In this document: positions 595-28,936 of the stretch, in pieces
How positions within the stretch are numbered: position 1 is the stretch's first letter
How the letters are laid out: each line of letters starts with the position of its first letter
NCBI GenBank assembly: GCA_964558645.1
Contig: CAZLEV010000004.1
Coordinates: forward strand, 171,442 to 235,441
DNA length: 64,000 nt
Reading direction: 5' to 3'
Origin: an uncultured archaeon
Lineage (GTDB): Archaea > Asgardarchaeota > Thorarchaeia > Thorarchaeales > Thorarchaeaceae
Position numbers and translations under genes: made by a program
Notes under the pieces: generated by a model
The model's database searches: none
Told to the model about the DNA's origin: nothing
Seen by the model: the letters and a program-made list of their open reading frames with translations, nothing else

Positions 595-716
595 ACTCTG
601 TCCTCATATGAGTTCTCAAGACAGGTCCCTGATTTAGGTTGTGTTTGCTTTGGAAAAGCCATAACTAATTAAGCCGGTCGCCGTCGCGTTGAACCAACCA
701 CAGAAAGGGATTGCTG

Positions 717-1298: not shown

Positions 1299-1315
1299 CA
1301 GAATCCCAAGGTGAA

Positions 1316-1903: not shown

Positions 1904-1908
1904 AGTCC

Positions 1909-3185: not shown

Positions 3186-3265
3186 ATGGGCGTTACGCTT
3201 TGCCCGATGAGTGATTGCCTACGCCAAAAATAGATATGCCTCTCGCCTTACTTGTAGAGTGAGGG

Positions 3266-5404: not shown

Positions 5405-5509
5405 CTGGTCAGTGTGGTAGGCATCTCAGTGATACTCAGACGTGGTCAGACTACTACTCAAGAGGCGGAAAGAAGCTGTACGAATCTACGCCGTGCAAGA
5501 CTGTATAGT

Positions 5510-6523: not shown

Positions 6524-6680
6524 AAGAGAGAAACCTCATGTCGGACAGAAGTCCCTTGCAGTGAGTGATTGCGAGAACAATTTAAGAGTTATTCCAATAT
6601 GGTGGAGAACCAAGAGTGCCATCACTCTGTGAATAGAGACGCGCTTAAGTTTCGCCCGTATGACATAGAGGAGACAATAG

Positions 6681-7226
6681 ATGACCTCACCGGATGACGA
6701 ATCGATGCTCAATCGGGACTATTGGAATGTTACTCCCGATGAACTGGCTGAGGAGATTAGAGCATTCACTAGCGAGTTCGGTTCATTTTCCCCAGAATGG
6801 TTTGTCGAGGTCAAGTTCCATCTCCTCAAGAGCCACGGGCTAGTGAAGGAAACCAGAAACGAGCTCTGTAGTGTTGCAATTGACAGAGGACTGTGTCCAC
6901 ACTGTGATCACCTTTACATCGCCAAGAAATGTCTTCTATGGTACGACCTCTACAAGCTGGTGAGCTGGAATATTGTCAGAAGGGCTCCCCCCTGCATTCG
7001 CATAGCTCTTACGAGAAAGAACATCAAGACCGTTGTCAACTTCCTCACGAATGCCAATCTGCTCGACCCCCCGTACTATACATCGAGGGGAGCTCCGACC
7101 TGTGCGAGTATGGAGCGGTGGGGCCTCTGCAGTCCTGATGAGTACTGCAAAGCTATGGAGTCAGGACGAACGCTGGAATATGTCAAAGTGAGAGAGAGAA
7201 TGAAACGCTCCAGGCCAACCAGATGA
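6681..7226 (+). CDS. Small Cys-rich protein resembling the Fe-S C-terminal domain of primase large subunit PriL
   Basis: APPCI...Y...APTCASMERWGLCSPDEYC resembles the PriL PPC...Y.PP.C..M...GLC...C pattern. Confidence 0.6.
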   Translation: MTSPDDESMLNRDYWNVTPDELAEEIRAFTSEFGSFSPEWFVEVKFHLLKSHGLVKETRNELCSVAIDRGLCPHCDHLYIAKKCLLWYDLYKLVSWNIVRRAPPCIRIALTRKNIKTVVNFLTNANLLDPPYYTSRGAPTCASMERWGLCSPDEYCKAMESGRTLEYVKVRERMKRSRPTR

Positions 7227-7436
7227 GCATTGATGTCTTGTGACTCCTTAAATATCGGTTTCACCTTTCGCAGTGTTGAGTCGTGACCAATGCTCCCCAG
7301 AAGGACCCACCAAGGTACACCGGAGCCCGGTGAAACGAAAGAGGCTGCACTCGGAGACCTCGATATTGAAACCGTGAATCTGATCAGGAAGACTGGCATA
7401 AGGGAGAACAGCATTGCAGGGGGAGGGCGCGATGGG

Positions 7437-8849
7437 ATGAATCAGCGGATTCTCAGGATGATAGCCGAGCATGAGAGAGTTCTGTCTCTCAGTGAGAAAC
7501 ACACCCGTCAGAAAGCAGTCCAAGACCCCGTTCATGGTGCCATACTCCTGGAACCATGGGAGCTCGATGTCGTCTCTACATGGGCCATGTTACGACTCCG
7601 CTATGTCATGCAACTTGGTCCTGCGCACTTGGTATACCCAGGTGCAACCCATACGCGCTTCCAACACTGTCTCGGAACTAACTTTCTTGCTCAGAAGTGC
7701 ATTCGAGTTGTCAACTATTGTGAGGAGATTGAGACTGCCTGCTTCAGGCCCCTATCAGATCTATTGAGTGACTATCAGCAGAAGATATTCAGAGCTGTGG
7801 CGATGCTACATGATGTTGGACACCCACCGACCTCGCACACAATAGAGTTTGCACTAAATTGCTGGGCAGGAATCTCGCACGTTGACCTAGGCGAGTACCT
7901 CATTCTGAACAGCGAACTCACCGACACTCTTGAACAGAATGACATACAGCCACAGGATGTCGTTTCAGTGCTGAGAGGGAGAACCAAAGACCCAATCCTC
8001 GAGCTGCTGTCCGACTTCGTGGACTCTCCACTTGACATTGACAAGACAGACTACCTTATTCGAGACGCACACTTCAGTGGTGTGCAGCTTGGGCTCTTTC
8101 CAGCGGAGCGCGTGCTTCTGACGAATCGTGTCGTCAAGAACAACGAAGGAAAATACATCAGAGCGTTCATGTTGAAAGCATTGCACTCGCTTGAGGCTCT
8201 CATCCTGTCACGGAACTGGATGTTCTCAGACCTCTATCTCCATCACGCGGTGAGAGTGGCAGAGGCTCTGACCAGTAAGGCGACCTACTTCAGGATAAAA
8301 GAGCTTGACCTCTCAAAGAACGAGATTGTGGGCCTCTTCACTCGCATGACAGATGGTGACCTCTATAGATGGCTTGAGGACGCACAGACTGATTTCGTCA
8401 GGGAGTATGCACTCAGAATCAGACTTCGCAGATTGCTCAAGGTAGTCCTGACAAGACCGCTGTCGTCATTTGATCCCTCCATACGCTCGAAGTTCATTCA
8501 GATGCTGCATGATATCGACCTGCTGACTAAGACAGAAGAGGAACTCGGAGATGATGTGGGCAGTGTGATTCTAGATGTCGTTGACCCAGAACTTGGAGAG
8601 CAAACACTCGGGAAGATTCCACTCCTGGTGGGCGGTGAGAGCACTGGCATGGACATTGTGAGCATCGAAAATGCCGATCAGGGCAGACCCATCATGCATG
8701 CCCTTCGTCAGCAAAAGAGAATACTTCCCACTGTCAGGGTCTACGCCGATCCGAGAGTTGCCCGAGGAGTGAGAAAGCAGTTCGAGAAGTTATTCCCTTC
8801 GCGCGAAGACGGTCATGTCGAGGATGAATACGATATGACGGATGTTTGA
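7437..8849 (+). CDS. HD-domain phosphohydrolase, SAMHD1/dNTPase family
   Basis: DPVHG, RLRYVMQLG...VYPGATHTRFQHCLG, LHDVGHPPTSH, DIDKTDYLIRD, LYLHH; ORF is open from 7290 but ATG 7437 is more plausible. Confidence 0.9.
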   Translation: MNQRILRMIAEHERVLSLSEKHTRQKAVQDPVHGAILLEPWELDVVSTWAMLRLRYVMQLGPAHLVYPGATHTRFQHCLGTNFLAQKCIRVVNYCEEIETACFRPLSDLLSDYQQKIFRAVAMLHDVGHPPTSHTIEFALNCWAGISHVDLGEYLILNSELTDTLEQNDIQPQDVVSVLRGRTKDPILELLSDFVDSPLDIDKTDYLIRDAHFSGVQLGLFPAERVLLTNRVVKNNEGKYIRAFMLKALHSLEALILSRNWMFSDLYLHHAVRVAEALTSKATYFRIKELDLSKNEIVGLFTRMTDGDLYRWLEDAQTDFVREYALRIRLRRLLKVVLTRPLSSFDPSIRSKFIQMLHDIDLLTKTEEELGDDVGSVILDVVDPELGEQTLGKIPLLVGGESTGMDIVSIENADQGRPIMHALRQQKRILPTVRVYADPRVARGVRKQFEKLFPSREDGHVEDEYDMTDV

Positions 8850-8930
8850 GATGCTCTGCTTGAGGTGGTGGTCAATCCAGCCGGGCAAGGGCGGTCTTTC
8901 AAGGGGTGATTTAGAATCGCTGCTTAGAGA

Positions 8931-13350: not shown

Positions 13351-13947
13351 CTATTCAAGCGCGGAGAGAAACTCTTCCGTTTCTTGTCCCTCTTCAATCA
13401 ACTCAATGTCTTGAACACCAACGCGTTCAGCATCGTAGCTCCGAGCGATGATTGTTGCATCAAACCTCTCTCTTGCTGTGGCCTCTCTTCCTCTCCAGAT
13501 ATAGATGTCATCCCATGTATCGAGGATGAAGACATCATCACTCTTCAGGGACTCTCGAGAGAGTGGAACCTCTGCATAATAGGTCTCATCATTCCTTCGG
13601 TGTACTCTCCAAAGCCTGTAGTCGTGCTTCTCAACGTGAACTTTCCTGAGGATTCCCTCAGTGTCTTGTTCAGTAATCTCAAAACTTGGGAACAACGACT
13701 TGAACTCCTCAGGTTCATCGCCACCGTCGATATGGTCGATGTCAGCATGTCCCCTTCTTGCTGTATCTCTCATAACGGCCTCAGCAGCAGCAAGAAATTT
13801 CTCGTCCACGGATGAATCAGGCCCTATCCAGAGATATATCTTGGGACCTGTGTCAACAAGATAGCAGTCCCCACGACCGAATGACCCAGGTTGGGGAACG
13901 ATGACCAAATTCCCTTTTTGAATGTGATAGACTGTAAGTTCGGGCAT
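13351..13947 (-). CDS. Two-domain gelsolin (2DGel-type actin regulator)
   Basis: Two gelsolin repeats: GSFGRGDCYLVD...IYLWIG..SSVDE...GGDEPEEFKSLF and LKSDDVFILD...IYIWRG..ATARER...EEGQETEEFL. Confidence 0.92.
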   Translation of the reverse strand: MPELTVYHIQKGNLVIVPQPGSFGRGDCYLVDTGPKIYLWIGPDSSVDEKFLAAAEAVMRDTARRGHADIDHIDGGDEPEEFKSLFPSFEITEQDTEGILRKVHVEKHDYRLWRVHRRNDETYYAEVPLSRESLKSDDVFILDTWDDIYIWRGREATARERFDATIIARSYDAERVGVQDIELIEEGQETEEFLSALE

Positions 13948-14056
13948 AAAGGACTTAGAGATGGACATAGTCTTAAGTCATGTTAGTATGGCGTTTCGAC
14001 GAAATCATCTGAGACCGTCTGAGAACTCCCGCTCGATTCCTTGGGAGGTATAAGGG

Positions 14057-14977: not shown

Positions 14978-16042
14978 GTGTGTCGGATATCAAAGGACAT
15001 GAGTTGTATGCAGAGAAGAGAGGACCACCTTCCACGATTGCTCATAGATACGCTTCCAAACCCGGTGTGCATAGTAGACAGGAAGAATCGTATTCGTTCT
15101 GTGAACAGAAGAGCCCTAGAACTGCTAGGCAGTACATCTGATGATGCCTTTATCGGCCACTCGCTGCTCGAATTTCTGGCACCCGAACATCGAAAACGAG
15201 CCGAAAGAGACCTTCAGAGATGCAATGACTTCATGCCTGGTAGCCCACACGAATATCATATAGTGAACAGTAGTGGAAGGAGAATCCCAATTGTTGCTAC
15301 ATCTGCGATTGTGCCGTGCGGCAATGACACAGAATGTATCGTATGCGTGGGAACACCCGCCGAAACGGAGAATAGTCTTCAGATAGGAAACAATCCTGCA
15401 TCTTCGAGAGCCATGCTCTATCTCGATATTCTGAGAAACGATGTTAGCAACCAGCTGCAGATCATCCTGTCGTCCGTGGAGCTGTTCATGCAAGACGGTC
15501 TGAAAGAGAACAAGAAACGCGAGCTCCTAGCGAATGCACTGCAAGCAGTCGACTGCTGTCAAGAGAGTATTAGGTATGCAGAGGAGATAGAACGACTGTT
15601 GGTTGAACCTCTTCGTCCTCGACGGCTTGATCTTGCAATAACTAACGCCATACTTGACATCTACAAGAACCGAGAAGACATCGATCTGACGGCAAGTTTC
15701 GGGGTAGAAGAGGGGATAGTCATGGCGGACGACTCTCTCGAGACTTTGATACGAGGATTAATCGACGAAGTATGTCGATGCAATCCAAGAGGAGATAAGT
15801 TGGTATCAATCGATGTACAGGAAACAGAGTCAGAGTATTTGATTGCCATTGCCGACAACGGACTTGGCAGATACAGATTAGAGAACAGTGTCTTCAACGG
15901 AAACCGGAAAGGACGTCTTCCAGGGATTCACGTATGTAGAACAATAGTCCAGAAGTACGGCGGCAGTCTCACTATTCTGGACAGGGTGATCAACAGTCCA
16001 CACGAGGGAGTCAGAGTAAGAATCACACTTCCTCGTTGCTAG
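14978..16042 (+). CDS. PAS-domain sensor histidine-kinase-like protein with degenerate H-box
   Basis: PAS domain (VNRRALELLG...FIGHSLLEFLAPE); H-box region YLDILRNDVSNQLQ lacks His; HATPase remnants IADNGLG and GVRVRITLP. Confidence 0.8.
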   Translation: MCRISKDMSCMQRREDHLPRLLIDTLPNPVCIVDRKNRIRSVNRRALELLGSTSDDAFIGHSLLEFLAPEHRKRAERDLQRCNDFMPGSPHEYHIVNSSGRRIPIVATSAIVPCGNDTECIVCVGTPAETENSLQIGNNPASSRAMLYLDILRNDVSNQLQIILSSVELFMQDGLKENKKRELLANALQAVDCCQESIRYAEEIERLLVEPLRPRRLDLAITNAILDIYKNREDIDLTASFGVEEGIVMADDSLETLIRGLIDEVCRCNPRGDKLVSIDVQETESEYLIAIADNGLGRYRLENSVFNGNRKGRLPGIHVCRTIVQKYGGSLTILDRVINSPHEGVRVRITLPRC

Positions 16043-16045
16043 TCA

Positions 16046-16073
16046 CTACAGAGGAGATTTCGTTTCTCTGTAG
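16046..16073 (+). terminator. Stem-loop immediately after the kinase-like gene
   Basis: CTACAGAGGAG-atttcg-TTTCTCTGTAG inverted repeat 3 nt after the stop codon. Confidence 0.45.
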
Positions 16074-16469
16074 GACTCTCCAACAAGAGGGCCACCCCCA
16101 ATGTAGAACGGCAATCCCAGTACCGTTTTGTTCAGAGTGCCTAGGCTCGGCGTGGACCTCATCGTAAGCCTAGACAACCAGAAAAGCGCAACTCCGTCAG
16201 AGCCCCATAGTTCATGGCAATCTCAACCTCTTCTGGACTTCCTATTAGGACTGCAGACTTTTTCACATTATGAGCTGAATCGGATGATGTCAGCTGTTAA
16301 TTCCGTCAGTCGCTGTTGAGGCCAGAAGGCTTGCTGAAGGACTGCCTTACTCTTGTATGGAAAACAGTCCATACCACAAAGAGAACTGCACTAATACTTG
16401 AAACGAGAGGGAATTTGTACATCTCAAAACTACTATAAGATAGGCCAGAGACGGTAGCAGTGGAGAAAG

Positions 16470-17813
16470 TTGCAAGTGTCTGAGATACCAAAAGACGCAC
16501 AGATTGCCATATTCTGGGACATCGAGAATGTCCATGATGATTTCAGAACGCATGAGAATATGATGAAAGAGTTTCGAGAGACGGGACGAGTGGTTCGTTC
16601 ATACGCGTTCGCCGATTGGGATAGCAGAAGAAGGATGGGTGAGCAACTAATGAAGATAGGTTTCGATCTCATCCACGTCCCCAGCGATATGCAAAATGCT
16701 AGCGATTTCAAGATGGGGGAGTACATTGTAGAGCATATGACCCGCTATCCCGATACCAACTGCTATGCGCTCATCACAGGAGATGGGGACTTCCTCGTTC
16801 TGACAGGTATACTGAAGTTCCGAGGTTACCATATCTGGCTAGTCAGCAATCCGCTATACACTTCGGCTGAACTCTCAGCTCTTGCTGACAGATACAGTGA
16901 TATGAAGTCGTTCCGCGGTCTTGCCTTTGAAGAACAAAGACATGTCGAGGAACCAGGCAAGCCTCTGGAGAGCCGAGCTGATAGGCGAGCCAGAGCCGCA
17001 GCAAGACTTCAGGAAACAATAAGCAAGATTCTGGAGGCCGAGAACAAGCCGGGAATCGGATGGGTCAAACATGTGATGGTATCTTTGAACCCTGATTTTG
17101 ACGAGAGAGAATTGGGATTCGAAACCTGGAAGGAATTCGTTGACTGGGCCGAGAAAAAGGGCTATGTGATCCAAGAGGGAGAGATGCCGGGCACGATACT
17201 GCGATTACCGCCCACGCCCTCTGTTGAGTCCTCTCGCTATTCTGATGAAACCAGCAGAGCATTCCAGAAACTAGTCGATATCCTGGAGAACTGCCTGAAT
17301 CATGGCAAAGACACTAATCTTGTTACACTGGGCCAGGAGGTCAAGTCCGAAGGTATTGACTATCACTCGCTCGGATACAGCAGACTGACCGATTTTGTGT
17401 CATCAGCAGAGAAGCGTGACTTCGTGAGAGTTATTCCTACCGAGGAAGAAAGCGGGCCCATAGTCCTGCCGAACTATCGAGTAGAGGATCTCAAACCTTG
17501 GTTCAAAGAGAATGTCACTAAGTACTTCGGCAAGAAGGCCAAAGTCCCTAAGGATATCTTCATCGAGAGGATAGGTCAGCTTCTGCTGGACAGCAGGATA
17601 ACACTGAAACAGCTAGAGAAGTACCTAGGAAGCAGGAAGCTTACACGAGAGTACGAGGCTATTCTAGAGGCGAGCGGTGTTCCGTTTCTACCTCCTTATC
17701 AGAAATCAATGTTGTATGTGTTTCTCGGAGAAGGTATGGATTGTGAGGAGGCAATAAAGGAGGTCAATGTCGAGTTGAAGCCTGTGAGCATTGCCCTCAG
17801 CTGTCCCGACTAG
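16470..17813 (+). CDS. NYN (LabA/DUF88) ribonuclease with two OST-HTH/LOTUS domains
   Basis: IFWDIENV, ASDFKM, ITGDGDF acidic motifs; LOTUS motifs PDFDERELGFETWKEFV and IDYHSLGYSRLTDFV. Confidence 0.85.
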   Translation: MQVSEIPKDAQIAIFWDIENVHDDFRTHENMMKEFRETGRVVRSYAFADWDSRRRMGEQLMKIGFDLIHVPSDMQNASDFKMGEYIVEHMTRYPDTNCYALITGDGDFLVLTGILKFRGYHIWLVSNPLYTSAELSALADRYSDMKSFRGLAFEEQRHVEEPGKPLESRADRRARAAARLQETISKILEAENKPGIGWVKHVMVSLNPDFDERELGFETWKEFVDWAEKKGYVIQEGEMPGTILRLPPTPSVESSRYSDETSRAFQKLVDILENCLNHGKDTNLVTLGQEVKSEGIDYHSLGYSRLTDFVSSAEKRDFVRVIPTEEESGPIVLPNYRVEDLKPWFKENVTKYFGKKAKVPKDIFIERIGQLLLDSRITLKQLEKYLGSRKLTREYEAILEASGVPFLPPYQKSMLYVFLGEGMDCEEAIKEVNVELKPVSIALSCPD

Positions 17814-17970
17814 TCGCCATACTGGTTAAGCGATATGCGGCGATATGATGAGTTTAGAGAGGATGACACTGGTTACATCAGAAGACAAGTTGTTCGGGGC
17901 TTGACGTCACATAATCTTGTTCTCTTGTTCGATGCTCTTATTTCGGACCCATGGTTGCTAACTATGCGGT

Positions 17971-18945
17971 ATGCAACTCACGATTGAACGCGCTCACAAC
18001 ATTGACGAATATCTCGAAGCATGGAGGCATCAGATACGTGACTACGAGTGGGCACGTGAATCGATTCCATTTCATTATGCCGTCGAAGAAGAGAGGCAAG
18101 AGATTCAAGAAGACTTTGAGAAGGAGCATCACTGGTTTCTCGTCGCCTATGACAAGACAGGTCGCCCGGTGGGAGTTCTGGGCATGAGACTGAACGGAGA
18201 AACCTGTGTGTTGCGAAACTGGGAGCCTGCCACCCAATCTAATCAAGCTGCGTGTATCGCACATCAGCTCTTGGACACAGGGTTCGAAACGACAAGAAAG
18301 GAAGGTGCTGTCATTGCGTTCGCACGGCTCAAGTACACCTTGCCGCTCAGAAGCAAGGCAGCCAACCTAAAGGAGAGATTGCTTGATTTTGGATTCTCCG
18401 AGAAGAGACGGGGAATCACATCAATCTGCGACCTGAACCACACTCGGTCATTGGAAGGCAAGATGCTGTTTCGTGATAGGGATGCATTCACTCTTGACGA
18501 GTTGACGGACATGACGGTGAAATCGTTTGCCTATGAAGAGGAAGACAGGAGCATCCATGGAGAATATCAGTCGGTCTCAGACCGAGAAGCCAACCGGCGC
18601 ATCATGGAGCTGATTGAGAAGGGGGTCTTTGGAAACTCACCACCTGAGCTTTGGCAGATTGCATTGGTTGATGACAGGCCGGCAGGTCTGGTGATCGGTT
18701 TCATCCCGGAATCTGAGTATCGCCCTCCGCATGGCGTAGTTGGACAGCTCTGTGTGCTCCCGGGTTTCCGCAGAAGAGGGGTGGCTACAGCATTGCTGAG
18801 GAGAATTCATCAGGAGTTCCAGTCTAAGGGATGCGAGTATGCGTTTGTGGGAACGCCTCGATCAAATCGAAGAGCGCTCAACCTCTATGAGAGAGAGGAA
18901 TATCGTAGAAGATTCGGTCAGGATGAGTTCGAGATGCGTCTATAG
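17971..18945 (+). CDS. Tandem GNAT N-acetyltransferase
   Basis: VLPGFRRRGVATALL acetyl-CoA motif, NRRALNLYEREEY; degenerate N-terminal GNAT half. Confidence 0.85.
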   Translation: MQLTIERAHNIDEYLEAWRHQIRDYEWARESIPFHYAVEEERQEIQEDFEKEHHWFLVAYDKTGRPVGVLGMRLNGETCVLRNWEPATQSNQAACIAHQLLDTGFETTRKEGAVIAFARLKYTLPLRSKAANLKERLLDFGFSEKRRGITSICDLNHTRSLEGKMLFRDRDAFTLDELTDMTVKSFAYEEEDRSIHGEYQSVSDREANRRIMELIEKGVFGNSPPELWQIALVDDRPAGLVIGFIPESEYRPPHGVVGQLCVLPGFRRRGVATALLRRIHQEFQSKGCEYAFVGTPRSNRRALNLYEREEYRRRFGQDEFEMRL

Positions 18946-19051
18946 AAGAGGGCGTCCTCACAATGTATTCAGTTCCATGTACTGCTCCAATCCCACATCC
19001 TGAGCATAATCTTATAGTGACAGATGACCCAATTGCAGATTGGCGAACAAG

Positions 19052-20389
19052 ATGTCTGACTCAGAGATGCGACCCGGCCTCACTGTCTTCTGGGATGTCG
19101 AGAACGTTCATGATATACTCGACACCCACGTGAGAATGACAGAAACTATCCGCAAATCAGGCAGGGTCATCAAGGCCTTTGCATTTGCCGATTGGGACAC
19201 CAGAAGGCGAATGGCAGAGAACCTCCATCAACTGGGCTATGACTTGATCCATATCCCAGATTCCAAAGACAATGCAGCAGATTACAAGATGGCATCATAT
19301 ATCATGGACCATGTTGTCCACTATCCCGAGACCCAGCAATACGTCATGATCACTGGAGATGGGGACTTCAACCTCATCGCCGGAGCCTTAAGAGAGCGAG
19401 GTCTCGGGCTATGGGTGATCAGTAATCCCATCATCACCTCATCTGCGCTATCGGAGCTAGCGACCAAATACGATGACATCTACTCCTTCAGACCGGTTCA
19501 CATGGATTGCTCAAGACCCGAGGACTGTGATGTGACCTCCGGAAAACTCTCCGACTATAGACGGAGAGCAGGTATGTATCTACGAGAAGCAATACAGAAG
19601 ATCACAGATGCTGGACATAAGCCGGGTCTCGGCCATGTGAAGCATGTTATGAACTCCCTCAACCCGCAGTTCGATGAGAAGGTACTGGGCTTCTCTACAT
19701 GGACTGAGTTCATTGAATGGGCAGAGTCAGAAAAATACGTTGAGAGAACAGGGGAGCCCCCCATTACTGTCTTGGCTATTCCTCCAGATGATATTCCTAG
19801 GATGTCTCAGTTGTCGCTCGAACTACAGAGCGCATTCGACTTGCTCGAAGCCGTCGTGGAGGCTAGGCTGGAAAGAGGAGAACCGACGTCTCTGGCAGAA
19901 GTCAACAATGACCTCAAGATGCAAGGATTTGAGCATGAGAGTGTAGGCTATATGCGCTTCAATGACCTGGTCTTGTCGGCAGAGAAGCGCGGGAAAATCA
20001 GAGTGGTCGCATCAGGTGAAGACACAGATGGTATCATGCTCTTTCCACAATGCACAATTGATAGAGTCAAGGAGTGGTTTGAAGAGCATGTCACAGATCT
20101 CTTTGGAAAATCTGTCAAGATTCCCAGGGCGGTCTTTCTGGAGAAGATATCCCAGATGCTACTCGAGAACCGTACAACTCTGAGGCATCTCGAGAAGTAT
20201 CTGAGAGATAACGATCTGAGGAGGACCTATCAGGACATTCTCGACGCCAGCGGGGTTCCGTTCCTGCCGCCATATCAGATGAGCATGGCATTTGTAATGC
20301 TGGGCAGAGGTAAGAGTGTCGAGGAAACTGTAGAGAGTGTCAGCGAGGAGCTTGAACCCCTGGGAATAACTCTGAAGATACCGGAGTAG
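19052..20389 (+). CDS. NYN (LabA/DUF88) ribonuclease with two OST-HTH/LOTUS domains, paralogue of 16470..17813
   Basis: VFWDVENV, AADYKM, ITGDGDF; PQFDEKVLGFSTWTEFI; FEHESVGYMRFNDLV; shared C-terminal ASGVPFLPPYQ. Confidence 0.85.
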   Translation: MSDSEMRPGLTVFWDVENVHDILDTHVRMTETIRKSGRVIKAFAFADWDTRRRMAENLHQLGYDLIHIPDSKDNAADYKMASYIMDHVVHYPETQQYVMITGDGDFNLIAGALRERGLGLWVISNPIITSSALSELATKYDDIYSFRPVHMDCSRPEDCDVTSGKLSDYRRRAGMYLREAIQKITDAGHKPGLGHVKHVMNSLNPQFDEKVLGFSTWTEFIEWAESEKYVERTGEPPITVLAIPPDDIPRMSQLSLELQSAFDLLEAVVEARLERGEPTSLAEVNNDLKMQGFEHESVGYMRFNDLVLSAEKRGKIRVVASGEDTDGIMLFPQCTIDRVKEWFEEHVTDLFGKSVKIPRAVFLEKISQMLLENRTTLRHLEKYLRDNDLRRTYQDILDASGVPFLPPYQMSMAFVMLGRGKSVEETVESVSEELEPLGITLKIPE

Positions 20390-20448
20390 GTATCCTGTAT
20401 AGAATCCATGTCATGGAAGGACATCAGCATGCTAGAAGGGACCCGTGA

Positions 20449-21423
20449 ATGACAAGCGATGCAAGGGATGAAACGAAGCAGGATGAAGAAGTAGAGAAGC
20501 GTAGGTATATCCCTCATCTTGCTGAGTTCTACTTCAAGCCCACTCATGATTGGAGCATCGCAGAGGCTAAGAGGCTATACCATTCAGCCGAGAATGACTG
20601 CGGCAACATGAGTCTGGACTCTGTTCATTTCAAAGACTGTATATCAGGGATGAAAGAGATGCCGAGGGAGTGTGTCGACCTAGTCATCGCGGATCCTCCG
20701 TTCGGGATAGATTTTGACGGCAAGAGTGGGGCATATAATCGAGATGAGAGTCTGGTTGTCAGTGGGTACGAGGAGATTGATGAGGATTACATTGCCTTCA
20801 GCGAGTCGTGGATTGGCGAGGCAGCTCGAATTCTAAACGATAGTGGGTCCATGTATATTTTCAGCGGCTGGAATAATCTCGAATATGTCTTGAGAGGCGC
20901 AAGATTGGCGGGGCTACATCTGCTCAACCATCTTATCTGGCAGTATCAGTTTGGTGTGTTCACCAAGAGGAGATTCGTTAGCAGTCACTACCACATTCTT
21001 CTCTTGGTCAAGAACAAGGACAACTACTTCTTCAACAAGCTGGAGAACTATCCCCAAGATGTCTGGAAAATAAAGCGGAGCTATCGTACCGGAAAGTCGA
21101 AGAATAGCACAAAACTGCCACTGAGAGTGGTCCAGAAGTGCATCGACTACTCTTCAGCTCCAGGGGAGATAGTACTGGACCCGTTCGTAGGCAATGGGAC
21201 CACGGCCGTCGCTGCCAAGGGAGCGCTACGACACTTCATTGGCTACGAGATAAACTCCCAACTGGAGAAAATCATTGCATCGAACCTGGCTGCCGTTGAG
21301 CCCGGTCAATTCTACATTTCGTACTCTGATAGACTTCCCTCCATTGAGGAGCTGGCCAAGAAGTATCCGAGAGCCTATCGCGAATATGTGAAGAGGGAAA
21401 ACCAAGAGAGCGGCGGAGAATAG
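20449..21423 (+). CDS. Site-specific DNA methyltransferase, N4/N6 beta class (orphan)
   Basis: Catalytic DPPF precedes SAM-binding VLDPFVGNGTTAVAA...FIGYEIN. Confidence 0.9.
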   Translation: MTSDARDETKQDEEVEKRRYIPHLAEFYFKPTHDWSIAEAKRLYHSAENDCGNMSLDSVHFKDCISGMKEMPRECVDLVIADPPFGIDFDGKSGAYNRDESLVVSGYEEIDEDYIAFSESWIGEAARILNDSGSMYIFSGWNNLEYVLRGARLAGLHLLNHLIWQYQFGVFTKRRFVSSHYHILLLVKNKDNYFFNKLENYPQDVWKIKRSYRTGKSKNSTKLPLRVVQKCIDYSSAPGEIVLDPFVGNGTTAVAAKGALRHFIGYEINSQLEKIIASNLAAVEPGQFYISYSDRLPSIEELAKKYPRAYREYVKRENQESGGE

Positions 21424-21432
21424 ACAGATTGA

Positions 21433-22890
21433 ATGAGAGGATTGGTTGCTGTGCCATATGACGAACTCTTCGAAAAGTACGGAGCAGACCGCGATCGGTT
21501 AGGCGATGTGGTTTCTCCAAGTGATGTCTTCACCCGCGAGTATGGCTCGGAGTTAACAGAATGGGAACGTGGCTTGCATCGTGATTTCAGAACACATGAA
21601 CATGGAAGAAGATACATCCACAGGGGTTTTGTGCACTATACGCGTTACATGGACCTCATTCTCTTGACTCCTAGCCCTTGGCTTGTAGAAGGCGTCTTCG
21701 TCTACCTAACCTCTGATCAAGAACCTCCAGATGAAGGAGCGTATGTCCAAGTAAGCGGAAAGAGTATAGCCTTGCCCCGACTCCTTCAGAAGGGCAATGA
21801 CATTGTTCAGGCGTTTACTGCAGAAGATATTCAAGAACTGAAAATTGACCTAATAGACCAGATTCGGCCGCCTCTATCTCTTAAGGACATCTCGGAGTTG
21901 TTGTTCGAACATGTGGGTATGGCTGAGGCAAGCAAACGAGTTTTTGCACGGTTGTTCGTATCCAGTCCACCGTTTCAGCAATCCGTCGGAGGGCTAACCA
22001 CAGGGATTCAAGCGATAGCATCCAAGACTCAGGTTCGTCGCCTCCTCTCTTTCACTCGGAGTGTCATACCTCCTACACTCAGAGGGACAAGAGGGAGGCA
22101 TCATAATGTAAGAGGATTCAGAATCTCAACTCCTAGGACTTGGAGATTGGATGCTGGAATGGTCAGCTCAACAAATCTCCGAACACTATGCATAGAGAGG
22201 CAAGACCCCCGGGGGTTCAGAGAGGTCTCCGTTGGGACACTGACCGAGAAGAGCACTGCAGTCTTGCCCGACGTTCCTCTTGCCTTGACATCAGAAGACT
22301 TCTGGGTCGAAACAAAGAGCTCAAAGCATCTTAGACTTCCCATACTGAAGTCTGTCATCACATTCCAGATGATGAACCCGAAGATATCCGTACGTTCGGT
22401 TGATGCAGCAACAAAACACGTTCTCGAACGGATGGAGAGGGTAAAGGAAAGTTTTGGGCTGGAGGAGAGTGCCTTGGCACGGGGTCACATTCTGGATGCT
22501 GATGCATTAGGAAGGCCCCTCAGCACGATTAGACTGGCCAGATCTACTGCACGAGCGTCATGGCAAGACAAAGTGAAGGCATCTGACCTTAAGCAGTCAT
22601 GGAACCAGATTCTCGAACCCGCACTGAAGGAATTCCTTGAACTGGTAGAACTAGAGTCAAGGGCTAAGGAAGACTGGGGAGAAGGGGCCCGTCTTGAGAA
22701 GTTCAACACCAAAGTTCATCGAGCAATACGACAGCTAGATAGCGGGAAGACGGGATCACTTGGGCCAAGTCTCGAAGAGATAGCTGAAGAGGCCGGAGTA
22801 GAAGTGCATGTTGCAGCCGAGAACCTAGAGAGAATGAAGAGAAACGGTGTCGTCTATGAGCCACGAACAGGGCACTACCGCCTGGTATAG
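21433..22890 (+). CDS. Degenerate MCM-like protein (OB fold, Walker-less AAA+ core, lid, C-terminal WH)
   Basis: EGAYVQVSGK (OB); RPLSTIRLARSTARASWQDKVKASD resembles the MCM sensor-2/lid RQLESLIRLAEAHAR; C-terminal LERMKRNGVVYEPRTGHYRLV resembles the archaeal MCM WH domain; no GxxGxGKS or DEFD. Confidence 0.6.
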   Translation: MRGLVAVPYDELFEKYGADRDRLGDVVSPSDVFTREYGSELTEWERGLHRDFRTHEHGRRYIHRGFVHYTRYMDLILLTPSPWLVEGVFVYLTSDQEPPDEGAYVQVSGKSIALPRLLQKGNDIVQAFTAEDIQELKIDLIDQIRPPLSLKDISELLFEHVGMAEASKRVFARLFVSSPPFQQSVGGLTTGIQAIASKTQVRRLLSFTRSVIPPTLRGTRGRHHNVRGFRISTPRTWRLDAGMVSSTNLRTLCIERQDPRGFREVSVGTLTEKSTAVLPDVPLALTSEDFWVETKSSKHLRLPILKSVITFQMMNPKISVRSVDAATKHVLERMERVKESFGLEESALARGHILDADALGRPLSTIRLARSTARASWQDKVKASDLKQSWNQILEPALKEFLELVELESRAKEDWGEGARLEKFNTKVHRAIRQLDSGKTGSLGPSLEEIAEEAGVEVHVAAENLERMKRNGVVYEPRTGHYRLV

Positions 22891-22911
22891 AGGACGGGAG
22901 AGGAGACCATC

Positions 22912-23718
22912 TTGCCAGAACTGCCTGAGCTCGAAGCCATTGCGATGAAACTGTGGGAAAGGTTCAACGGTAAGGAGGTCGAATCAGTTCGGGTGTATGA
23001 GGCTCTTGTCATTCATGCCATCACACCAGATGATTTCGTCGAAAGAATAACCAATTCGGTCTTGTCTTCCTGTGTCGCCGATGGCAAGTTCATAATCCTC
23101 AGTCTCACTGGAAACAAGAAGATTGTAGTCAATCCGATGCTGGCAGGAAGATTCAGAATCGTACAGAGAGGGCGAAGATCTCTGAAGAGAAACATCTTCG
23201 CTCTTGAATTCGGGAGCGAGAGTCTTCTGTACACTGATACTAAGAGAATGAGCAGAGTCTATCTGGTTCTTGACGACGATTTCACCGTTGTCAAGGGTTT
23301 CGCGGGACGGGGACCACAAGCGCTTGGACACGATCTTACGGAACATGCATTCCTAGACAGAATCAAGAGGTTCAGAGGACATATCAAGAATGTTCTGACG
23401 AACCAACGATTCATCACAGGCATTGGCAACGCATATGCAGACGAGGTCCTTCTCTACGCAGGAATCATGCCGTTCAGAAGAAGAGCAAGTCTGAGTACCA
23501 ACGAGATTGTCAGCCTTTACAGGGCGATGAGAGACGTCTTGTCGCGCTATCGGGACATGATGATGAAGAGGAATCTGTCGGAACTAGCCACGGAGAAACG
23601 AGACTTCCTGATGATTCATGGAAGAGGAGGGGAAAAGTGTCCGCTCTGTGGGGGGAGAATATCAGAAGTAACAGCCAATCGCTTCAAGACGAACTACTGT
23701 CAGACCTGCCAGAAATGA
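22912..23718 (+). CDS. mutM: Fpg/Nei family DNA glycosylase/AP lyase
   Basis: N-terminal PELPE, GK, H2TH motif GIGNAYADEVL, C-terminal zinc finger CPLCG...YCQTCQ. Confidence 0.9.
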   Translation: MPELPELEAIAMKLWERFNGKEVESVRVYEALVIHAITPDDFVERITNSVLSSCVADGKFIILSLTGNKKIVVNPMLAGRFRIVQRGRRSLKRNIFALEFGSESLLYTDTKRMSRVYLVLDDDFTVVKGFAGRGPQALGHDLTEHAFLDRIKRFRGHIKNVLTNQRFITGIGNAYADEVLLYAGIMPFRRRASLSTNEIVSLYRAMRDVLSRYRDMMMKRNLSELATEKRDFLMIHGRGGEKCPLCGGRISEVTANRFKTNYCQTCQK

Positions 23719-23774
23719 AGCACAAGACACTAATCTCTGACCATTCATAGTAAGCATGAAGACCTCAGTACAGG

Positions 23775-24962
23775 GTGATGAGTGTGGATGATTGGGAATT
23801 AGAATTCTTGAGAGATCTTGTAGAACTGGACACAAACAGCGAGCAGAAGAAGAACTACACCGAGTGTGCTGCTGTTGTGGTGGAGAGATGCAAAGAGGCG
23901 GGCCTTGCGGTTGAAGTCTTCGACTCGAAGCATGAGGGGGTGGCTCAGCCAAATGTGGTTGCCGAACTGAATGCTGACAGCGACCGAACAGTCCTCCTTG
24001 CGACCCACTATGATGTTGTCCCAGCAGGAGATGAAGACAAGTGGACCCGACCACCGTTCGAGCTGGTGGTTGAGAAAGACCGAGTATATGGGAGAGGTAC
24101 AACCGACAACAAAGGGAACATTGTGGCATCCGTCAGCGCTGCAAGGGCTCTATTGGAGCAAGGCTCAGCAAACGTCAACTGGAAAATACTCATCTCGCCT
24201 AATGAAGAGATTGGAGGAGAATGGGGGATCGACTATCTGATAAACGGACCCCCTAAAATACGAGGAGACTTCGGCATCGTAGTAGATTCTAGCCCTAACT
24301 ACATCAGTATGGGTGCAAGCGGCATCGTGGCGGGTACTGTGACCATAACGGGTACGCAGGGTCATGCAGGTATGCCCTTTGCCTTCACAAACGCGATACA
24401 CATCAGCATCCCGGTCATGAATGCGCTACTCCGCTTCGCAGACCTCAGAAGGAAAGTGACCTCTCAATATCCAGCTCCTCCTGAGAGCCCGTTTCAGAAT
24501 CTCTGGGGGCGGTTCTCTATGACCGTGTACAAAGCCGGCACTAAGACTAACGTAATCCCAGGCAAGGCCGAGATCTCGTTTGACTGCAGGATAATTCCTG
24601 AAGAGAATCCGGATGAAGTTGCCAATCAGATATCCAAGTTCTTGGAGAAGACACGGGAAGAAACCGGGATTCAGGTAGACGTGTCTTTCATCACAAAGGC
24701 AGACAGCTGGGTCTCGGACACAGATAACCCCTATGCACAGGCATTTCACGAATCGGTCAACTCAACCGTGGGCACATTCGTACCTATGGCTGTTGACCTG
24801 GGTGGCAATGATGGGTCCTTTTTTGTGAATGCAGGAATCCCTGCAGTATGCTATGGTACGATTGCTAAGGACAACAACTTCCACGGCATCGACGAGTTCA
24901 TGAGGCTGGATGATTTCGACAAGGTGAAAAGAGCCCTGATTCACTTTGCAGAGTCGTGTTAG
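23775..24962 (+). CDS. M20 family metallopeptidase/deacylase (ArgE/DapE-like)
   Basis: HYDVVP, GRGTTDNKG, NEEIGG, GHAG, NVIPG, FHGIDE. Confidence 0.9.
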   Translation: MMSVDDWELEFLRDLVELDTNSEQKKNYTECAAVVVERCKEAGLAVEVFDSKHEGVAQPNVVAELNADSDRTVLLATHYDVVPAGDEDKWTRPPFELVVEKDRVYGRGTTDNKGNIVASVSAARALLEQGSANVNWKILISPNEEIGGEWGIDYLINGPPKIRGDFGIVVDSSPNYISMGASGIVAGTVTITGTQGHAGMPFAFTNAIHISIPVMNALLRFADLRRKVTSQYPAPPESPFQNLWGRFSMTVYKAGTKTNVIPGKAEISFDCRIIPEENPDEVANQISKFLEKTREETGIQVDVSFITKADSWVSDTDNPYAQAFHESVNSTVGTFVPMAVDLGGNDGSFFVNAGIPAVCYGTIAKDNNFHGIDEFMRLDDFDKVKRALIHFAESC

Positions 24963-24965
24963 TCC

Positions 24966-26090
24966 ATGGTCGATGTTCATGATCTTCAGATAGGTGCTCC
25001 GGGTCCCTTCTTGCCCCCTTGGGACCGTGTCAAGAAGAATGCAGAATTGATTGATTCATTGGGATATGACAGCATGGCATTTCCCGACCATTTTGCAGGC
25101 TTCGTTCCTGAGAGTATATGGACACCAGATATTACACCGCTTGCCCTCATACAACAGTCTCCTCATACATTCTTTGAGCTCAGTTCCATCATGGCAGCCT
25201 CAGCTGTGGTCACTAAGCACGTTGATATCATATCAGCTGTAACAGAGCCAATCCGAAGGCACCCAGTTCTTCTCGCCCAGACGTTCATGACACTTGATCA
25301 CATCAGTGAGGGAAGAGCCATCCTTGGAATCGGAGCAGGTGAGGCTGAAAACATAGAACCCTATGGCCTCAGCTACTCAGGACAAGTCGGCAAACTACGG
25401 GAGGCATTGGAGATCATCACGAGAATATGGCAAACACACGAGCCATTCAACTACGAGGGGCGATTCTGGAAACTGAAAGATGGCGTGATGTCTCTGAGAC
25501 CAAGCAGGTCTGACAGGCCGCCCAGAATATGGATTGCTGCTCATGGACCAAAAATGCTGAACATCACAGCGGAGTTCGGTGATGGCTGGATTCCAACACT
25601 CTTAGACCCGACCGATTACGGTCATCGCCTGGATCAGATAATGAAAGCCAGAAAACGATTGAAGAAGGAGAATGAGTTCACCGCCGCTCTCTGGCAATGG
25701 TTCATTCTTGATGACGAGCCGGAGGAATGCAGGAGGATGATGCAGACTCCACTAGCAAAGGCCTTTGCCCTTCTCTATCCCGCAGAACTATGGACGAAAC
25801 TCGGATATGAACACCCTCTCGGCAGTGACTTCTACTCTCTGCGAGACTACATACCTATGCGGTATGGGAGAGAAACCATGCTGGAGGCCATCGATAGAGT
25901 GCCACAGGAGATCTTGGAGAGTTTCTACATTACAGGAGATGCCGACTCAGTACTGGATATACTGGAAGAGTACATGAAACACGGATTGGAGCACATCATC
26001 ATGTGGAATGTGACAGGAATGTTCGATCTTGAGAGAACGCGATCATCCTATCGAGTCATGAAGGAGATACTAGAATATGTCAAGGGGTAG
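24966..26090 (+). CDS. LLM-class (probably F420-dependent) oxidoreductase
   Basis: GYDSMAFPDH, RRHPVLLAQTFMTLDHISEGRAILGIGAGE, IWIAAHGPKML...GDGW. Confidence 0.9.
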   Translation: MVDVHDLQIGAPGPFLPPWDRVKKNAELIDSLGYDSMAFPDHFAGFVPESIWTPDITPLALIQQSPHTFFELSSIMAASAVVTKHVDIISAVTEPIRRHPVLLAQTFMTLDHISEGRAILGIGAGEAENIEPYGLSYSGQVGKLREALEIITRIWQTHEPFNYEGRFWKLKDGVMSLRPSRSDRPPRIWIAAHGPKMLNITAEFGDGWIPTLLDPTDYGHRLDQIMKARKRLKKENEFTAALWQWFILDDEPEECRRMMQTPLAKAFALLYPAELWTKLGYEHPLGSDFYSLRDYIPMRYGRETMLEAIDRVPQEILESFYITGDADSVLDILEEYMKHGLEHIIMWNVTGMFDLERTRSSYRVMKEILEYVKG

Positions 26091-26649
26091 ACTGACCCTG
26101 ATCACCACCAACGAGCATAAACTAGCTGAGCTACGCCCGCTCTTTGCAGAATATGGGGTTGACTTCGAAACCATGAATGTTGAGAAGATCGAGATAAGGG
26201 ACGATTCGGTGGAGATCGTGGCAAGGGAGGCTGCAAGACACGCGTTCGAGACTGTTCAGAAACCAGTAGTTGTCGATGATACAGGCCTCTACATCGACAC
26301 TCTAGCAGGTTTTCCAAGGGCGTATCCAGCTTTCGTACTCGAAACTATAGGCAGACAGGGAATACTCAAACTCCTTGAAGGGAAGACAGACCGCAGTGCG
26401 CGCTTTGTAACCAGTGTGGGGTATTCTGATGGACAGAACTTGTACACTTTCACAGGAGAGATGCGAGGGAAGATATCACTGGAAGAGCGTGGATCAGAGG
26501 GGTTTGGTTATGACCCCATCTTCATTCCTGAAGGCTTCGACCAAACCTACGCCGAACTCTCCTTTCAGGAAAAGACAGCCATCTCGCATAGAACTCGAGC
26601 TTTCAGTTCATTTCTCAAATGGTATCGAAACGAGTTCAACAAGTCTTAA
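26077..26649 (+). CDS. rdgB: Non-canonical purine NTP pyrophosphatase (RdgB/HAM1)
   Basis: TTNEHKLAE, VDDTGL, GFGYDPIF, SHRTRA. Confidence 0.95.
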   Translation: MSRGRLTLITTNEHKLAELRPLFAEYGVDFETMNVEKIEIRDDSVEIVAREAARHAFETVQKPVVVDDTGLYIDTLAGFPRAYPAFVLETIGRQGILKLLEGKTDRSARFVTSVGYSDGQNLYTFTGEMRGKISLEERGSEGFGYDPIFIPEGFDQTYAELSFQEKTAISHRTRAFSSFLKWYRNEFNKS

Positions 26650-26688
26650 GACCGTCCTGAGGCCTGTTTGATGCTGCTGGTGTGATTC

Positions 26689-27444
26689 ATGAAGATAAGC
26701 GAGAACGCCCTGAAGGCCCTGAGAGAACTAGGCCTCACAGAGTACGAAACTTCAGCGTATCTGGCTCTTGTTGATGGCGGCAAGATGGCGGCCTCGGATA
26801 TCAGCTCAGAATCAGGTGTGCCCTATAGCAGAATCTACGACGTTCTGGGTAGGCTCGAAGAGAAAGGTTTCATCCAGATTCAGAGGGGAAGACCAACCCT
26901 GTACATCGCCAAGGCACCTACGGAGGTTGTTCGTCTTGTGAGGCTTAACCTAGAAGAGAAACTTGACCGCTCTAGCAAGCTGGTTGTCGACGAACTACAG
27001 CCGCTGTATGAAGAAGACCAACAAGTAACGAGCAGGGATGTCTTTGTGATACATGGCCGCTCAGCCATTCTTGCCAAGGCAATAGAGATGGTCAATACCG
27101 CTCGCGAACAGATCAAGCTCTCAGTTCCCAGTCTTGACTTGGAAACCGAAGACATTGATGCAATAATTGATCGAGTTCTTGATGTGAGAACCAAGAATGT
27201 CAGTGTTCTAACGTCTGATGTGCCCGAGTCTATGAGGAATATGATTCCTAACGGGTTCCACATCCGCACTCGGGAGAGGGTATTTGGCGCAGGTCTGGTT
27301 GTTGATGAGCGGCAGACTCTTATCATGCTAGCTGGTGGAGAGAAGCAGCAGTACCTTGGAGTCTATTCTAATCACGCTGTTTTTGCAGCGATGGCATCTG
27401 CATACTTTGATTCCCTCTGGCAAGAATCCAAGCCGTTAAGCTAG
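26689..27444 (+). CDS. TrmB family transcriptional regulator
   Basis: LGLTEYETSAYLAL...SGVPYSRIYDVLGRLEEKGF...GRPTLY; PLD-like C-terminal effector domain. Confidence 0.9.
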   Translation: MKISENALKALRELGLTEYETSAYLALVDGGKMAASDISSESGVPYSRIYDVLGRLEEKGFIQIQRGRPTLYIAKAPTEVVRLVRLNLEEKLDRSSKLVVDELQPLYEEDQQVTSRDVFVIHGRSAILAKAIEMVNTAREQIKLSVPSLDLETEDIDAIIDRVLDVRTKNVSVLTSDVPESMRNMIPNGFHIRTRERVFGAGLVVDERQTLIMLAGGEKQQYLGVYSNHAVFAAMASAYFDSLWQESKPLS

Positions 27445-27583
27445 GAGGAGGTTAAATGGGGGGCACAGGACAAAAGAGATGGTAGTCTCTGCCAACAAGA
27501 CCGTCTAGGGGAGATAGAAGAAACCTACGAAGGAAGTAGGCACTCCAGACACCTCAATAGCATCTCCTGAGGAGACAACAATC

Positions 27584-28936
27584 ATGCCTGAATTCAAGAT
27601 ATCAGCGTCTGCTGACGCGCTGCTTCGCGTACTTCAAATGATAGAGAAGGGGTCATCTATCGACCTATTCAGTGACGGACCAGATGTCGAACAAGTCAGA
27701 AGAATGGTAGAAACTTATCGAGGTGGGCTTCACGATGATCTTGTGGAGCGTTTGGAGAGAGTAGCCGACTTAGGGGGACCTTCACTGGCAACACAGCGAG
27801 ACCTCTTTTCGCTCGTTACTCAACTCTGGGAGGAGAATATCTCCAGACTCAACAAGACCGAGTTGCTTGTGCTGCAGAGAGCTGTTGAGGCTCCTGGTGA
27901 GAGTATTAGTAGACTCTCTAAGCAGGTCAGAATAAGCTACTCTCGTGCGAGAAGAGGGTACCGCAAGCTAGAGCAGGCGGGAGTCTTGCATGTTGAGGGG
28001 ATGCTCAATTCTCAGTCAATCGGGCTTGAACGGATCATGGTCATTCTTGAAAATCCGAGCTTGGTTCTGGCAGGCCCCTACATTGAGAAGAGTCTCTATG
28101 TTGATGGTGCGATTCCACGATGTCACCTGGTTTTGACATGCCCCCGCGACAGAACGCGGGACTTGCTAGTATTGTTCAGGTCATTGAGGGCTACCTCGGA
28201 CAATATCTCAGCATTCCGAATCTCTGTGGGTAAGCCAAGGTTTTCGTTCCTCTATTTTGACTATGCAAGCTCTTCTTGGTTCCCTGACCTGCTCCATCAG
28301 CGATTACTCGTGCGGCAAGGGGGAGAGCCCATAACTCTCGCAGAGTCATCTAACAAGATAGAACAATATCCCGACCTCAAGAGCAATGACTTGAAGGTCA
28401 TTGACGTACTTCGAAAGAACTATCACAGCCCTATCGAGGATATCGTAAGAAAAGCAGCAATCTCTGAGAGCACCGCCTTCAAGAAGAGAAAGGCAATACA
28501 GCAAGCAGAAGCACCAGTTCTGTTGCCGCGAACACGTGTAAACATTCCCATGCTAGGCGAGAGGATAATGGTCATAGCCTCTCCCGAAACAGCAGGAGAT
28601 ATACTTCCTGCCTGGAGGGAGTTACCGCAGACCTACGTGTCACGCATAGCGAACCTGGAAGATGAGAGAGACAATAGGATCATGCTTCTTGCGGCGCTCC
28701 CTGCTGGAAGCGGAAGGAAGATTCTACAGATCTTGGAAGAGGAGATAAGCCGTGTCAACAACTATTCTGCACACACTATCTCTGCAGGGACAGAAACAAG
28801 AATGTCGATGTCCACGATGTTCGATAATAAGAGTTCGTCTTGGAAGTGGGATCACGGTGCCTTCTTCGAACCGGTCGCTTACGGTGTTGCCAGACGCGAT
28901 GCGGGTAGCGAGAACATTCCCGTTGACCTAGCATGA
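27584..28936 (+). CDS. Multi-HTH (duplicated Lrp/AsnC-like) putative regulator
   Basis: Two HTH segments (ISRLSKQVRISYSRARRGYRKLEQAGV; IEDIVRKAAISESTAFKKRK), each followed by an alpha/beta region. Confidence 0.55.
   Translation: MPEFKISASADALLRVLQMIEKGSSIDLFSDGPDVEQVRRMVETYRGGLHDDLVERLERVADLGGPSLATQRDLFSLVTQLWEENISRLNKTELLVLQRAVEAPGESISRLSKQVRISYSRARRGYRKLEQAGVLHVEGMLNSQSIGLERIMVILENPSLVLAGPYIEKSLYVDGAIPRCHLVLTCPRDRTRDLLVLFRSLRATSDNISAFRISVGKPRFSFLYFDYASSSWFPDLLHQRLLVRQGGEPITLAESSNKIEQYPDLKSNDLKVIDVLRKNYHSPIEDIVRKAAISESTAFKKRKAIQQAEAPVLLPRTRVNIPMLGERIMVIASPETAGDILPAWRELPQTYVSRIANLEDERDNRIMLLAALPAGSGRKILQILEEEISRVNNYSAHTISAGTETRMSMSTMFDNKSSSWKWDHGAFFEPVAYGVARRDAGSENIPVDLA

Follow-up and report, generated by a model that had tools for sequence, protein, structure and literature searches.

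A truncated MCM paralogue with a degenerate ATPase site in the core gene set of a Thorarchaeota family

The usual description of archaea gives them a single homohexameric MCM helicase and few accessory factors. Eukaryotes contain six active MCM subunits together with inactive paralogues that regulate them; MCM-BP and MCMDC2 are inactive MCM paralogues of eukaryotes. In the Sulfolobales, a non-initiator paralogue of Orc1/Cdc6, Orc1-2, is described as a DNA-damage regulator that keeps its AAA+ ATPase domain (PMC9738581). The protein considered here, referred to as pseudo-MCM, is encoded in a 64,000-nucleotide stretch of Asgard archaeal DNA (the window; positions 171,442 to 235,441 of contig CAZLEV010000004.1, assembly GCA_964558645.1, from an uncultured member of the Thorarchaeota). 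Its gene is the middle one of three co-oriented open reading frames on the + strand (20449–21423, 21433–22890 and 22912–23718) with intergenic gaps of 9 and 21 nt, an arrangement already described in an earlier, sequence-only reading of this DNA and confirmed by the coordinates of the frames. The gene and the domains of its product are arranged as follows.

21433..22890, + strand: pseudo-MCM, 485 aa, with an ATG start at 21433
21586..21837, + strand: OB-fold of pseudo-MCM, residues 52–135, six strands, predicted local distance difference test (pLDDT) score about 90
21880..22467, + strand: degenerate AAA+ core of pseudo-MCM, residues about 150–345
22486..22572, + strand: AAA+ lid helix of pseudo-MCM, residues 352–380, recognized by profile matches to MCM structures, by hhalign and by PF17855
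22690..22887, + strand: C-terminal winged-helix domain of pseudo-MCM, residues about 420–485, with matches to MCM winged helices and pLDDT 88–94

A GTG at 21451 provides an alternative start that would give a protein of 479 aa, and is the start used in one database homologue. Pseudo-MCM reaches no Pfam or NCBIfam cut-off and gives weak C-terminal matches to MCM models. Its fold was modelled with AlphaFold2 from an alignment of 50 diverse family sequences (A2), which was also the basis of the profile searches. The model has a pLDDT of 88.4 and a predicted template modelling score of 0.83; a model built from 22 close homologues (about 60% identity) was poor (pLDDT 52.8) and was not used. When the model is compared with the PDB using Foldseek, the top 50 matches are all MCM2-7 or archaeal MCM proteins, with E-values down to 5.6e-12. 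A structure search of the ESM Atlas returns the protein's own unnamed archaeal clusters first, followed by named MCM clusters. The structural alignments begin at model residue 52 or thereabouts, corresponding to residue 106 of SsoMCM in the OB-fold, and the OB-fold of pseudo-MCM is equivalent to subdomain C of the MCM N-terminal region. The degenerate AAA+ core that follows contains the pre-AAA helix and an SSP...GG motif. The protein thus has the chain order of the MCM family, with an OB-fold, an AAA+ core, a lid and a C-terminal winged helix. The sequence-only reading had proposed just such an architecture, and the five motifs it quoted are all found in the order claimed; a structure prediction had been suggested as a check for the OB and AAA+ folds, and both are present in the model. 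Identity as Cdc6/Orc1 or another AAA+ protein is rejected, as the OB-fold precedes the AAA+ core and MCMs alone top both structure searches.

Homology to MCM is also evident by sequence in the lid, which corresponds to the sensor-2 helix, and in the winged helix. The A2 profile matches SsoMCM (4fdg, 1.3e-7), an Asgard MCM (8x7t, 7e-7) and 2m45 (1.4e-6), as well as MCM8, Mcm4, Mcm6 and Mcm7, the matches to MCM structures beginning at the lid helix. Aligned by hhalign with 17 intein-free Asgard MCMs, that of the host included, it gives a local E-value of 3.8e-9, covering lid plus winged-helix domain. The global probability is 97.7%. PF17855 (MCM_lid) is matched by three members of the pseudo-MCM family, and PF21120 (MCM_WH_arc) by family members with E-values down to 5.4e-6; MCM_C is matched too. 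The lid helix carries the motif G-R/K-P-L-S...R-L-A-x-S-x-A-R, in which Arg374 is invariant. The winged helix is of the archaeal MCM type, ends in YEPR.GHYRLV and matches the MCM winged-helix structures 2m45 and 2ma3 and that of MCM8. Taken together, fold, profiles and motifs make it very probable that pseudo-MCM is an ancient paralogue of MCM, the replicative helicase of archaea, which has diverged but kept the fold of the MCM chain, and they bear out the claim of a protein of MCM architecture in an Asgard archaeon.

The features needed for catalysis are not kept. PF00493 (MCM domain) gives no match to pseudo-MCM at E-values up to 1, and a scan of the whole genome with this model finds one canonical 690-aa MCM on contig 16 and does not detect the pseudo-MCM gene. 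The Walker A motif GxxGxGK[ST] is absent, and the loop aligned with GDPGTGKS is shortened, reading AIASKT in the window's protein; a conserved Lys or Gly is found in this region in none of the 50 family members, and GK[ST] in no member of the wider family. No acidic pair equivalent to Walker B (IDEFDK) is conserved in the aligned region, where the residue-level alignment is of low confidence. The only near-invariant acidic residues, E264 and D280, both lie outside the Walker B region. In place of the arginine-finger motif SRFD stands PDVP here, and distant relatives have SDFP; the position of the Arg is taken by an invariant Asp, and the RGD ahead of the P-loop strand persists as an invariant GG. 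In a global alignment to MCM the pre-sensor 1 (PS1) lysine is absent. At the N-terminus there is no Cys4 zinc finger, since the first 135 residues are without cysteines, and MCM subdomain A is missing, because the structural alignments start only at the OB-fold. That Walker A and B were lacking had been stated from the sequence alone, and is upheld by the global alignment and the columns of the 50-member family. On these motifs pseudo-MCM is predicted to be an MCM paralogue that is truncated at its N-terminus and whose ATPase site is dead, and, because every ATP-handling motif is lost, to be unable to act as a motor. The inactive state appears to be ancestral to the whole family.

Compared with archaeal MCM (S. 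solfataricus, 4fdg and 6mii; P. furiosus AAA+ domain, 4r7z; Asgard, 8x7t), pseudo-MCM shares the domain order, a lid helix and winged helix that are homologous by sequence, and several traces elsewhere, namely the PGD.V.G motif of the OB-fold, the pre-AAA helix, RGD in the form of GG-L-T and SRFD in the form of SDFP or PDVP. It is about 200 residues shorter and differs in lacking subdomain A, the Cys4 zinc finger, the Walker A lysine with its P-loop, Walker B, the arginine finger and the PS1 lysine. With MCM-BP and MCMDC2, to which the sequence-only reading had compared it, it has in common the logic of an MCM-derived protein without a working ATPase beside an active helicase. The comparison stands as an analogy only; the corresponding profile, PF09739 (MCM_bind), has no match to pseudo-MCM at E-values up to 1, nor in a genome-wide six-frame scan at E-values up to 10, and MCM-BP is not listed in the ESM Atlas structure search. 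A search with ESM features places a eukaryotic MCM_bind cluster at 0.84 and canonical MCM clusters at 0.82, values that lie under the tool's evidence level and serve as a lead only. Orc1-2 provides a different likeness, that of a replication protein with AAA+ and winged-helix domains which has a non-canonical role and is kept beside the canonical factor. Orc1-2 belongs to the initiator clade of AAA+ proteins and has its ATPase domain, as described in PMC9738581, whereas pseudo-MCM belongs to the MCM clade and the site is predicted to be destroyed.

Scanning 301 genomes of the phylum with a pseudo-MCM profile finds the full-length protein in every one of the 76 genomes from the Thorarchaeota family of the window, and in a few other families. 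Outside these the profile touches only the C-termini of canonical 690-aa Asgard MCMs. Pseudo-MCM occurs in single copy alongside one canonical MCM elsewhere in the genome, and is a vertically inherited core gene of the family. Its close homologues form at least 220 clusters at about 60% identity, those that are named being from Thorarchaeota, and clustering at 50% leaves 72 family representatives. An exhaustive profile search extends the family to full-length relatives with 20–30% identity, all without Walker A. Some of these come from Odinarchaeota and Methanomethyliaceae, the two taxa for which the cluster look-ups give names, and others from further archaea; the family spans several archaeal phyla. 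The ratio of non-synonymous to synonymous substitution rates (dN/dS, Nei-Gojobori) against a congener is 0.10 for pseudo-MCM and 0.13 for the methyltransferase encoded upstream. Against a more distant congener, dN is lower for pseudo-MCM (0.105) than for the methyltransferase (0.133) and the Fpg protein encoded downstream (0.195). Across 22 homologues 110 columns are invariant, and the OB and AAA+ parts are strongly conserved in the family. These values point to purifying selection and to a working gene. In one family genome (G155, contig 15, 114799–116198) the match falls in two pieces with a TGA between them, which may reflect a frameshift, a stop or misassembly. The match in a further genome (G242, contig 1, 156822–158087) is part of an open frame of 716 aa, perhaps through fusion or through extension at the upstream end.

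The genomic settings of some distant homologues bear on function. In three Methanomethyliaceae assemblies, which are close kin (their proteins form one 90%-identity cluster) and are counted as one observation, the homologue has an AT-rich stretch on either side (17–30% GC, compared with about 55% in the coding DNA). The locus is shown below for one of them, GCA_038872915.1 (L074).

700–4543: Methanomethyliaceae locus, with the same layout in the other two assemblies (L075 and L087)
1504–2946: distant pseudo-MCM homologue, with AT-rich DNA on both sides in which ORB-like (origin recognition box) elements are repeated and inverted
3066–3082 (+) and 3169–3191 (-): ORB-like pair around the AT-rich stretch of ~85 bp
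3169–3204 and 3393–3428: 36-nt inverted pair

An element like GAAACGAAAT(G/A)AGGGTGTG, which we take to resemble the ORB consensus, is present in inverted copies in these stretches. One of the inverted pairs encloses some 85 bp of AT-rich DNA, and the homologue is 550 nt away from an Orc1/Cdc6 gene. If the repeat is likened to an ORB, the layout would match the ORB-DUE-ORB arrangement (DUE, duplex unwinding element) described for oriC1 (PMC12141716). The locus therefore looks like a putative replication origin in which a pseudo-MCM homologue is embedded. Cren7 is encoded upstream, and TFB lies beyond. In another lineage (L077, JGI 3300031576) the homologue (3136–4545) is upstream of a Metallophos and SMC_N pair (region 5292–8855), which by its domains looks like Mre11/Rad50; a 423-aa protein without a family is encoded directly upstream of this homologue.

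In the window, pseudo-MCM lies between two genes of DNA metabolism.

20449..21423, + strand: beta-class N6-adenine/N4-cytosine DNA methyltransferase, 324 aa, PF01555 at 1.3e-37 over residues 76–276
22912..23718, + strand: Fpg/Nei DNA glycosylase/AP lyase, 268 aa, TTG start; PF01149 (2.1e-16), PF06831 (8.4e-15) and PF06827 (3.5e-5), all over cut-off

The sequence-only reading took the three genes as a functional operon, and proposed a survey of related genomes in which loss of linkage would speak against it. The linkage is indeed broken. Across the family the methyltransferase is directly upstream of pseudo-MCM in about 27 of 30 sampled loci, with gaps of -8 to about 36 nt, and the genes further upstream are variable. 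A methyltransferase orthologue is present in 77 of 81 family genomes and is not linked to pseudo-MCM in at least six genera; by family-wide search, several genera have their sole homologue on another contig. The loci fetched from six genera have no methyltransferase, and three of the six also lack Fpg. The backbone in these genera consists of NYN/Fer4, pseudo-MCM, gelsolin (on the opposite strand), (Fpg), M20, a luciferase-like gene and Ham1. Pseudo-MCM and Fpg are separated in nearly all genera by a gelsolin gene that runs convergently on the opposite strand, and the direct abutment of the two is confined to the window's genus. The window's gelsolin-domain gene is at 13354–13977 on the - strand, about 7.5 kb upstream, and its product is 68% identical to the copy of a relative (L002). 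As the gene has moved, the abutment of pseudo-MCM and Fpg is derived, and the tight run of three genes is a local rearrangement specific to this genus. Outside the family, none of the distant homologues in the loci examined has a methyltransferase or Fpg gene as a neighbour. The methyltransferase probably shares a transcript with pseudo-MCM in the majority of genera, and Fpg probably does so in the window's genus alone. Neither of these syntenic neighbours is an obligate partner, and both can be dispensed with; the proposed link of methylation and base-excision repair to the replisome through one operon can be dismissed as a gene order peculiar to this genus. A looser, non-obligatory link between the methyltransferase and pseudo-MCM may exist.

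Pseudo-MCM most likely acts without catalysis, through surfaces retained from MCM. Its winged helix, the part closest in sequence to MCM, would serve as a contact surface, and the OB and AAA+ tiers, which provide ring contacts in MCM and are strongly conserved here, may allow packing onto MCM subunits or binding to DNA. The winged helix of Sulfolobus MCM touches Orc1-1 bound at ORB elements when the helicase is recruited (PMC12141716). On account of this contact, the closeness of the winged helix to that of MCM, the retained tiers, and the replication and repair settings of homologues in unrelated lineages, pseudo-MCM may be regarded as a decoy, an adaptor or a regulator that would act when replication starts or while forks are maintained, with MCM, Orc1/Cdc6 or DNA as its targets. 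Such a replication-linked binding mechanism is proposed tentatively, at rather less than even odds. The best explanation overall, that of a catalytically dead MCM paralogue maintained as a core gene with a non-catalytic role in replication, is given a probability of about 0.55. Several observations weigh against it. The central AAA+ alignment to MCM is of low confidence per residue, only the lid and winged helix being significant by sequence. A single lineage shows the origin-adjacent context, whereas elsewhere distant homologues lie among metabolic or toxin-antitoxin genes, and no convincing origin-like repeats were found beside those of three further loci (L008, L076 and L088). The genome of the window has its pseudo-MCM gene away from MCM and from both cdc6 genes. 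Finally, a protein with a winged helix might just as well be a transcription factor. The main rival is a winged-helix DNA-binding regulator of transcription or of the DNA-damage response without a role at the replisome. The winged helix is the best-kept domain and in profile comparisons also resembles those of TrmB, LexA, MarR and IclR, a replication protein with AAA+ and winged-helix domains has a precedent as a damage-response regulator (Orc1-2, PMC9738581), and the DNA-repair genes Fpg, Ham1 and Mre11/Rad50 are nearby in some lineages. However, the winged helix scores best against those of MCM and not those of transcription factors, the conserved OB and AAA+ parts would be needless in a simple repressor, and a homologue is found at the origin-like region of Methanomethyliaceae; we consider this rival unlikely.

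It is improbable, to a somewhat greater degree, that the methyltransferase, pseudo-MCM and Fpg form one module in which pseudo-MCM tethers the methyltransferase or glycosylase to the replisome or to DNA. The tight gaps in the window, the Shine-Dalgarno-like GGAGAGGAG before the Fpg start, the persistence of the methyltransferase while genes further upstream vary, and the similar rates at which it and pseudo-MCM evolve would fit such a module. The six genera that keep pseudo-MCM in the same backbone without the methyltransferase, three of them also without Fpg, do not, and neither do the gelsolin gene that intervenes before Fpg in most genera, the derived abutment in the window, or the neighbours of homologues outside the family. 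Moreover, the whole block as far as TrmB is syntenic, and the adjacency may simply be inherited. The sequence-only reading had offered as an alternative a restriction-modification-like or other defence module with the MCM-like protein in the effector slot. Some defence systems include helicase-like proteins, and the gene adjoins a Type II-like methyltransferase. PADLOC, however, has no match for pseudo-MCM, Fpg or the first NYN protein of the locus; pseudo-MCM has neither a nuclease domain nor ATPase motifs, and it is a universal, single-copy, vertically inherited gene under purifying selection in a stable housekeeping neighbourhood, with no anomaly of composition at the locus. A defence module is rejected on this evidence as very improbable. 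Least credible is a decaying, functionless relic of an MCM duplication; all catalytic motifs have gone, as such a relic would have it, but the reading frame is intact in all 76 family genomes, and the dN/dS, the invariant columns and the spread over several phyla refute decay.

A bolder form of the replication-linked reading is that the family is an ancient archaeal origin- or replisome-associated regulator that mimics an MCM subunit, its winged helix competing for Orc1/Cdc6, for example, or the whole protein capping or joining MCM rings. This is a possibility that we hold to be somewhat unlikely; if true, pseudo-MCM would be the archaeal functional counterpart of eukaryotic MCM-BP. The boldest form, in which the family is the evolutionary source of MCM-BP, is highly improbable. 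A literature search, whose coverage left out most subscription journals, gave no description of an ATPase-dead MCM paralogue in archaea or Asgard archaea. Pseudo-MCM represents an inactive replicative-helicase paralogue, in this case archaeal and truncated in its architecture, and would be a prokaryotic case of the pseudo-helicase logic of eukaryotes. An ATPase-dead, strictly conserved MCM paralogue would add an unrecognized player to archaeal replication or repair, and the relatives in Odinarchaeota, Methanomethyliaceae and other archaea widen its significance. Several hundred 'hypothetical' proteins in the databases can now be named as pseudo-MCM.

The neighbouring methyltransferase is of the beta class, having the PF01555 match and a (D/S)PP(Y/F) motif IV (DPPF, residues 82–85) ahead of the FxGxG motif I that binds S-adenosylmethionine (FVGNGTT, residues 246–252). 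Its nearest solved structures are CcrM, M.MboIIA, DpnA and M.RsrI. It shares the PF01555 fold and beta-class motif order with CcrM (PDB 6pbd), an orphan adenine methyltransferase, and like such orphan enzymes has no cognate nuclease nearby; against the CcrM equivalog it scores 99 bits, far under the cut-off of 830. No restriction enzyme is found among the neighbouring genes with which it could form a Type II restriction-modification pair, and in PADLOC it matches the MTase_II and orphan-MTase models only. A second paralogue in the same genome, 57% identical to the window copy over residues 16–238, is found at or near two contig ends (contig 25, 38772–39437; contig 9, 2–667). The genera without a linked methyltransferase carry only this second type elsewhere (52–55% identity).

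The Fpg/Nei protein begins (M)PELPE, with the N-terminal catalytic Pro2-Glu3, and continues with an H2TH domain and a C-terminal Cys4 zinc finger (CPLC...CQTC). NCBIfam fpg models match at 6e-40, under their equivalog cut-offs, and it is assigned to the Fpg/Nei class and not to a subfamily. By these features the glycosylase is intact-looking.

The genes around the locus encode NYN-LOTUS, GNAT, pseudo-MCM, Fpg and M20 peptidase proteins, and an Rfam search of positions 16000–28000 of the window gave no RNA family. The two NYN-LOTUS (OST-HTH) proteins (16470–17813 and 19040–20389) are paralogues, 46% identical to each other, and a 324-aa protein with a C-terminal GNAT domain is encoded between them (within 16470–20389). 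Related genomes have a single NYN gene at this position, often with an Fer4 protein. Elsewhere in the host genome, the canonical MCM gene and one of two Orc1/Cdc6 genes are ~5 kb apart on contig 16 (44772–51303). The chromosomal origin may lie in this region, whereas the pseudo-MCM gene is carried by contig 4. Canonical MCM genes of Asgard archaea are in many cases found in frames of 1000–2400 aa that PF00493 matches in separate pieces (for example G286 contig 58, G127 contig 47 and G154 contig 91); these probably carry one or more inteins.

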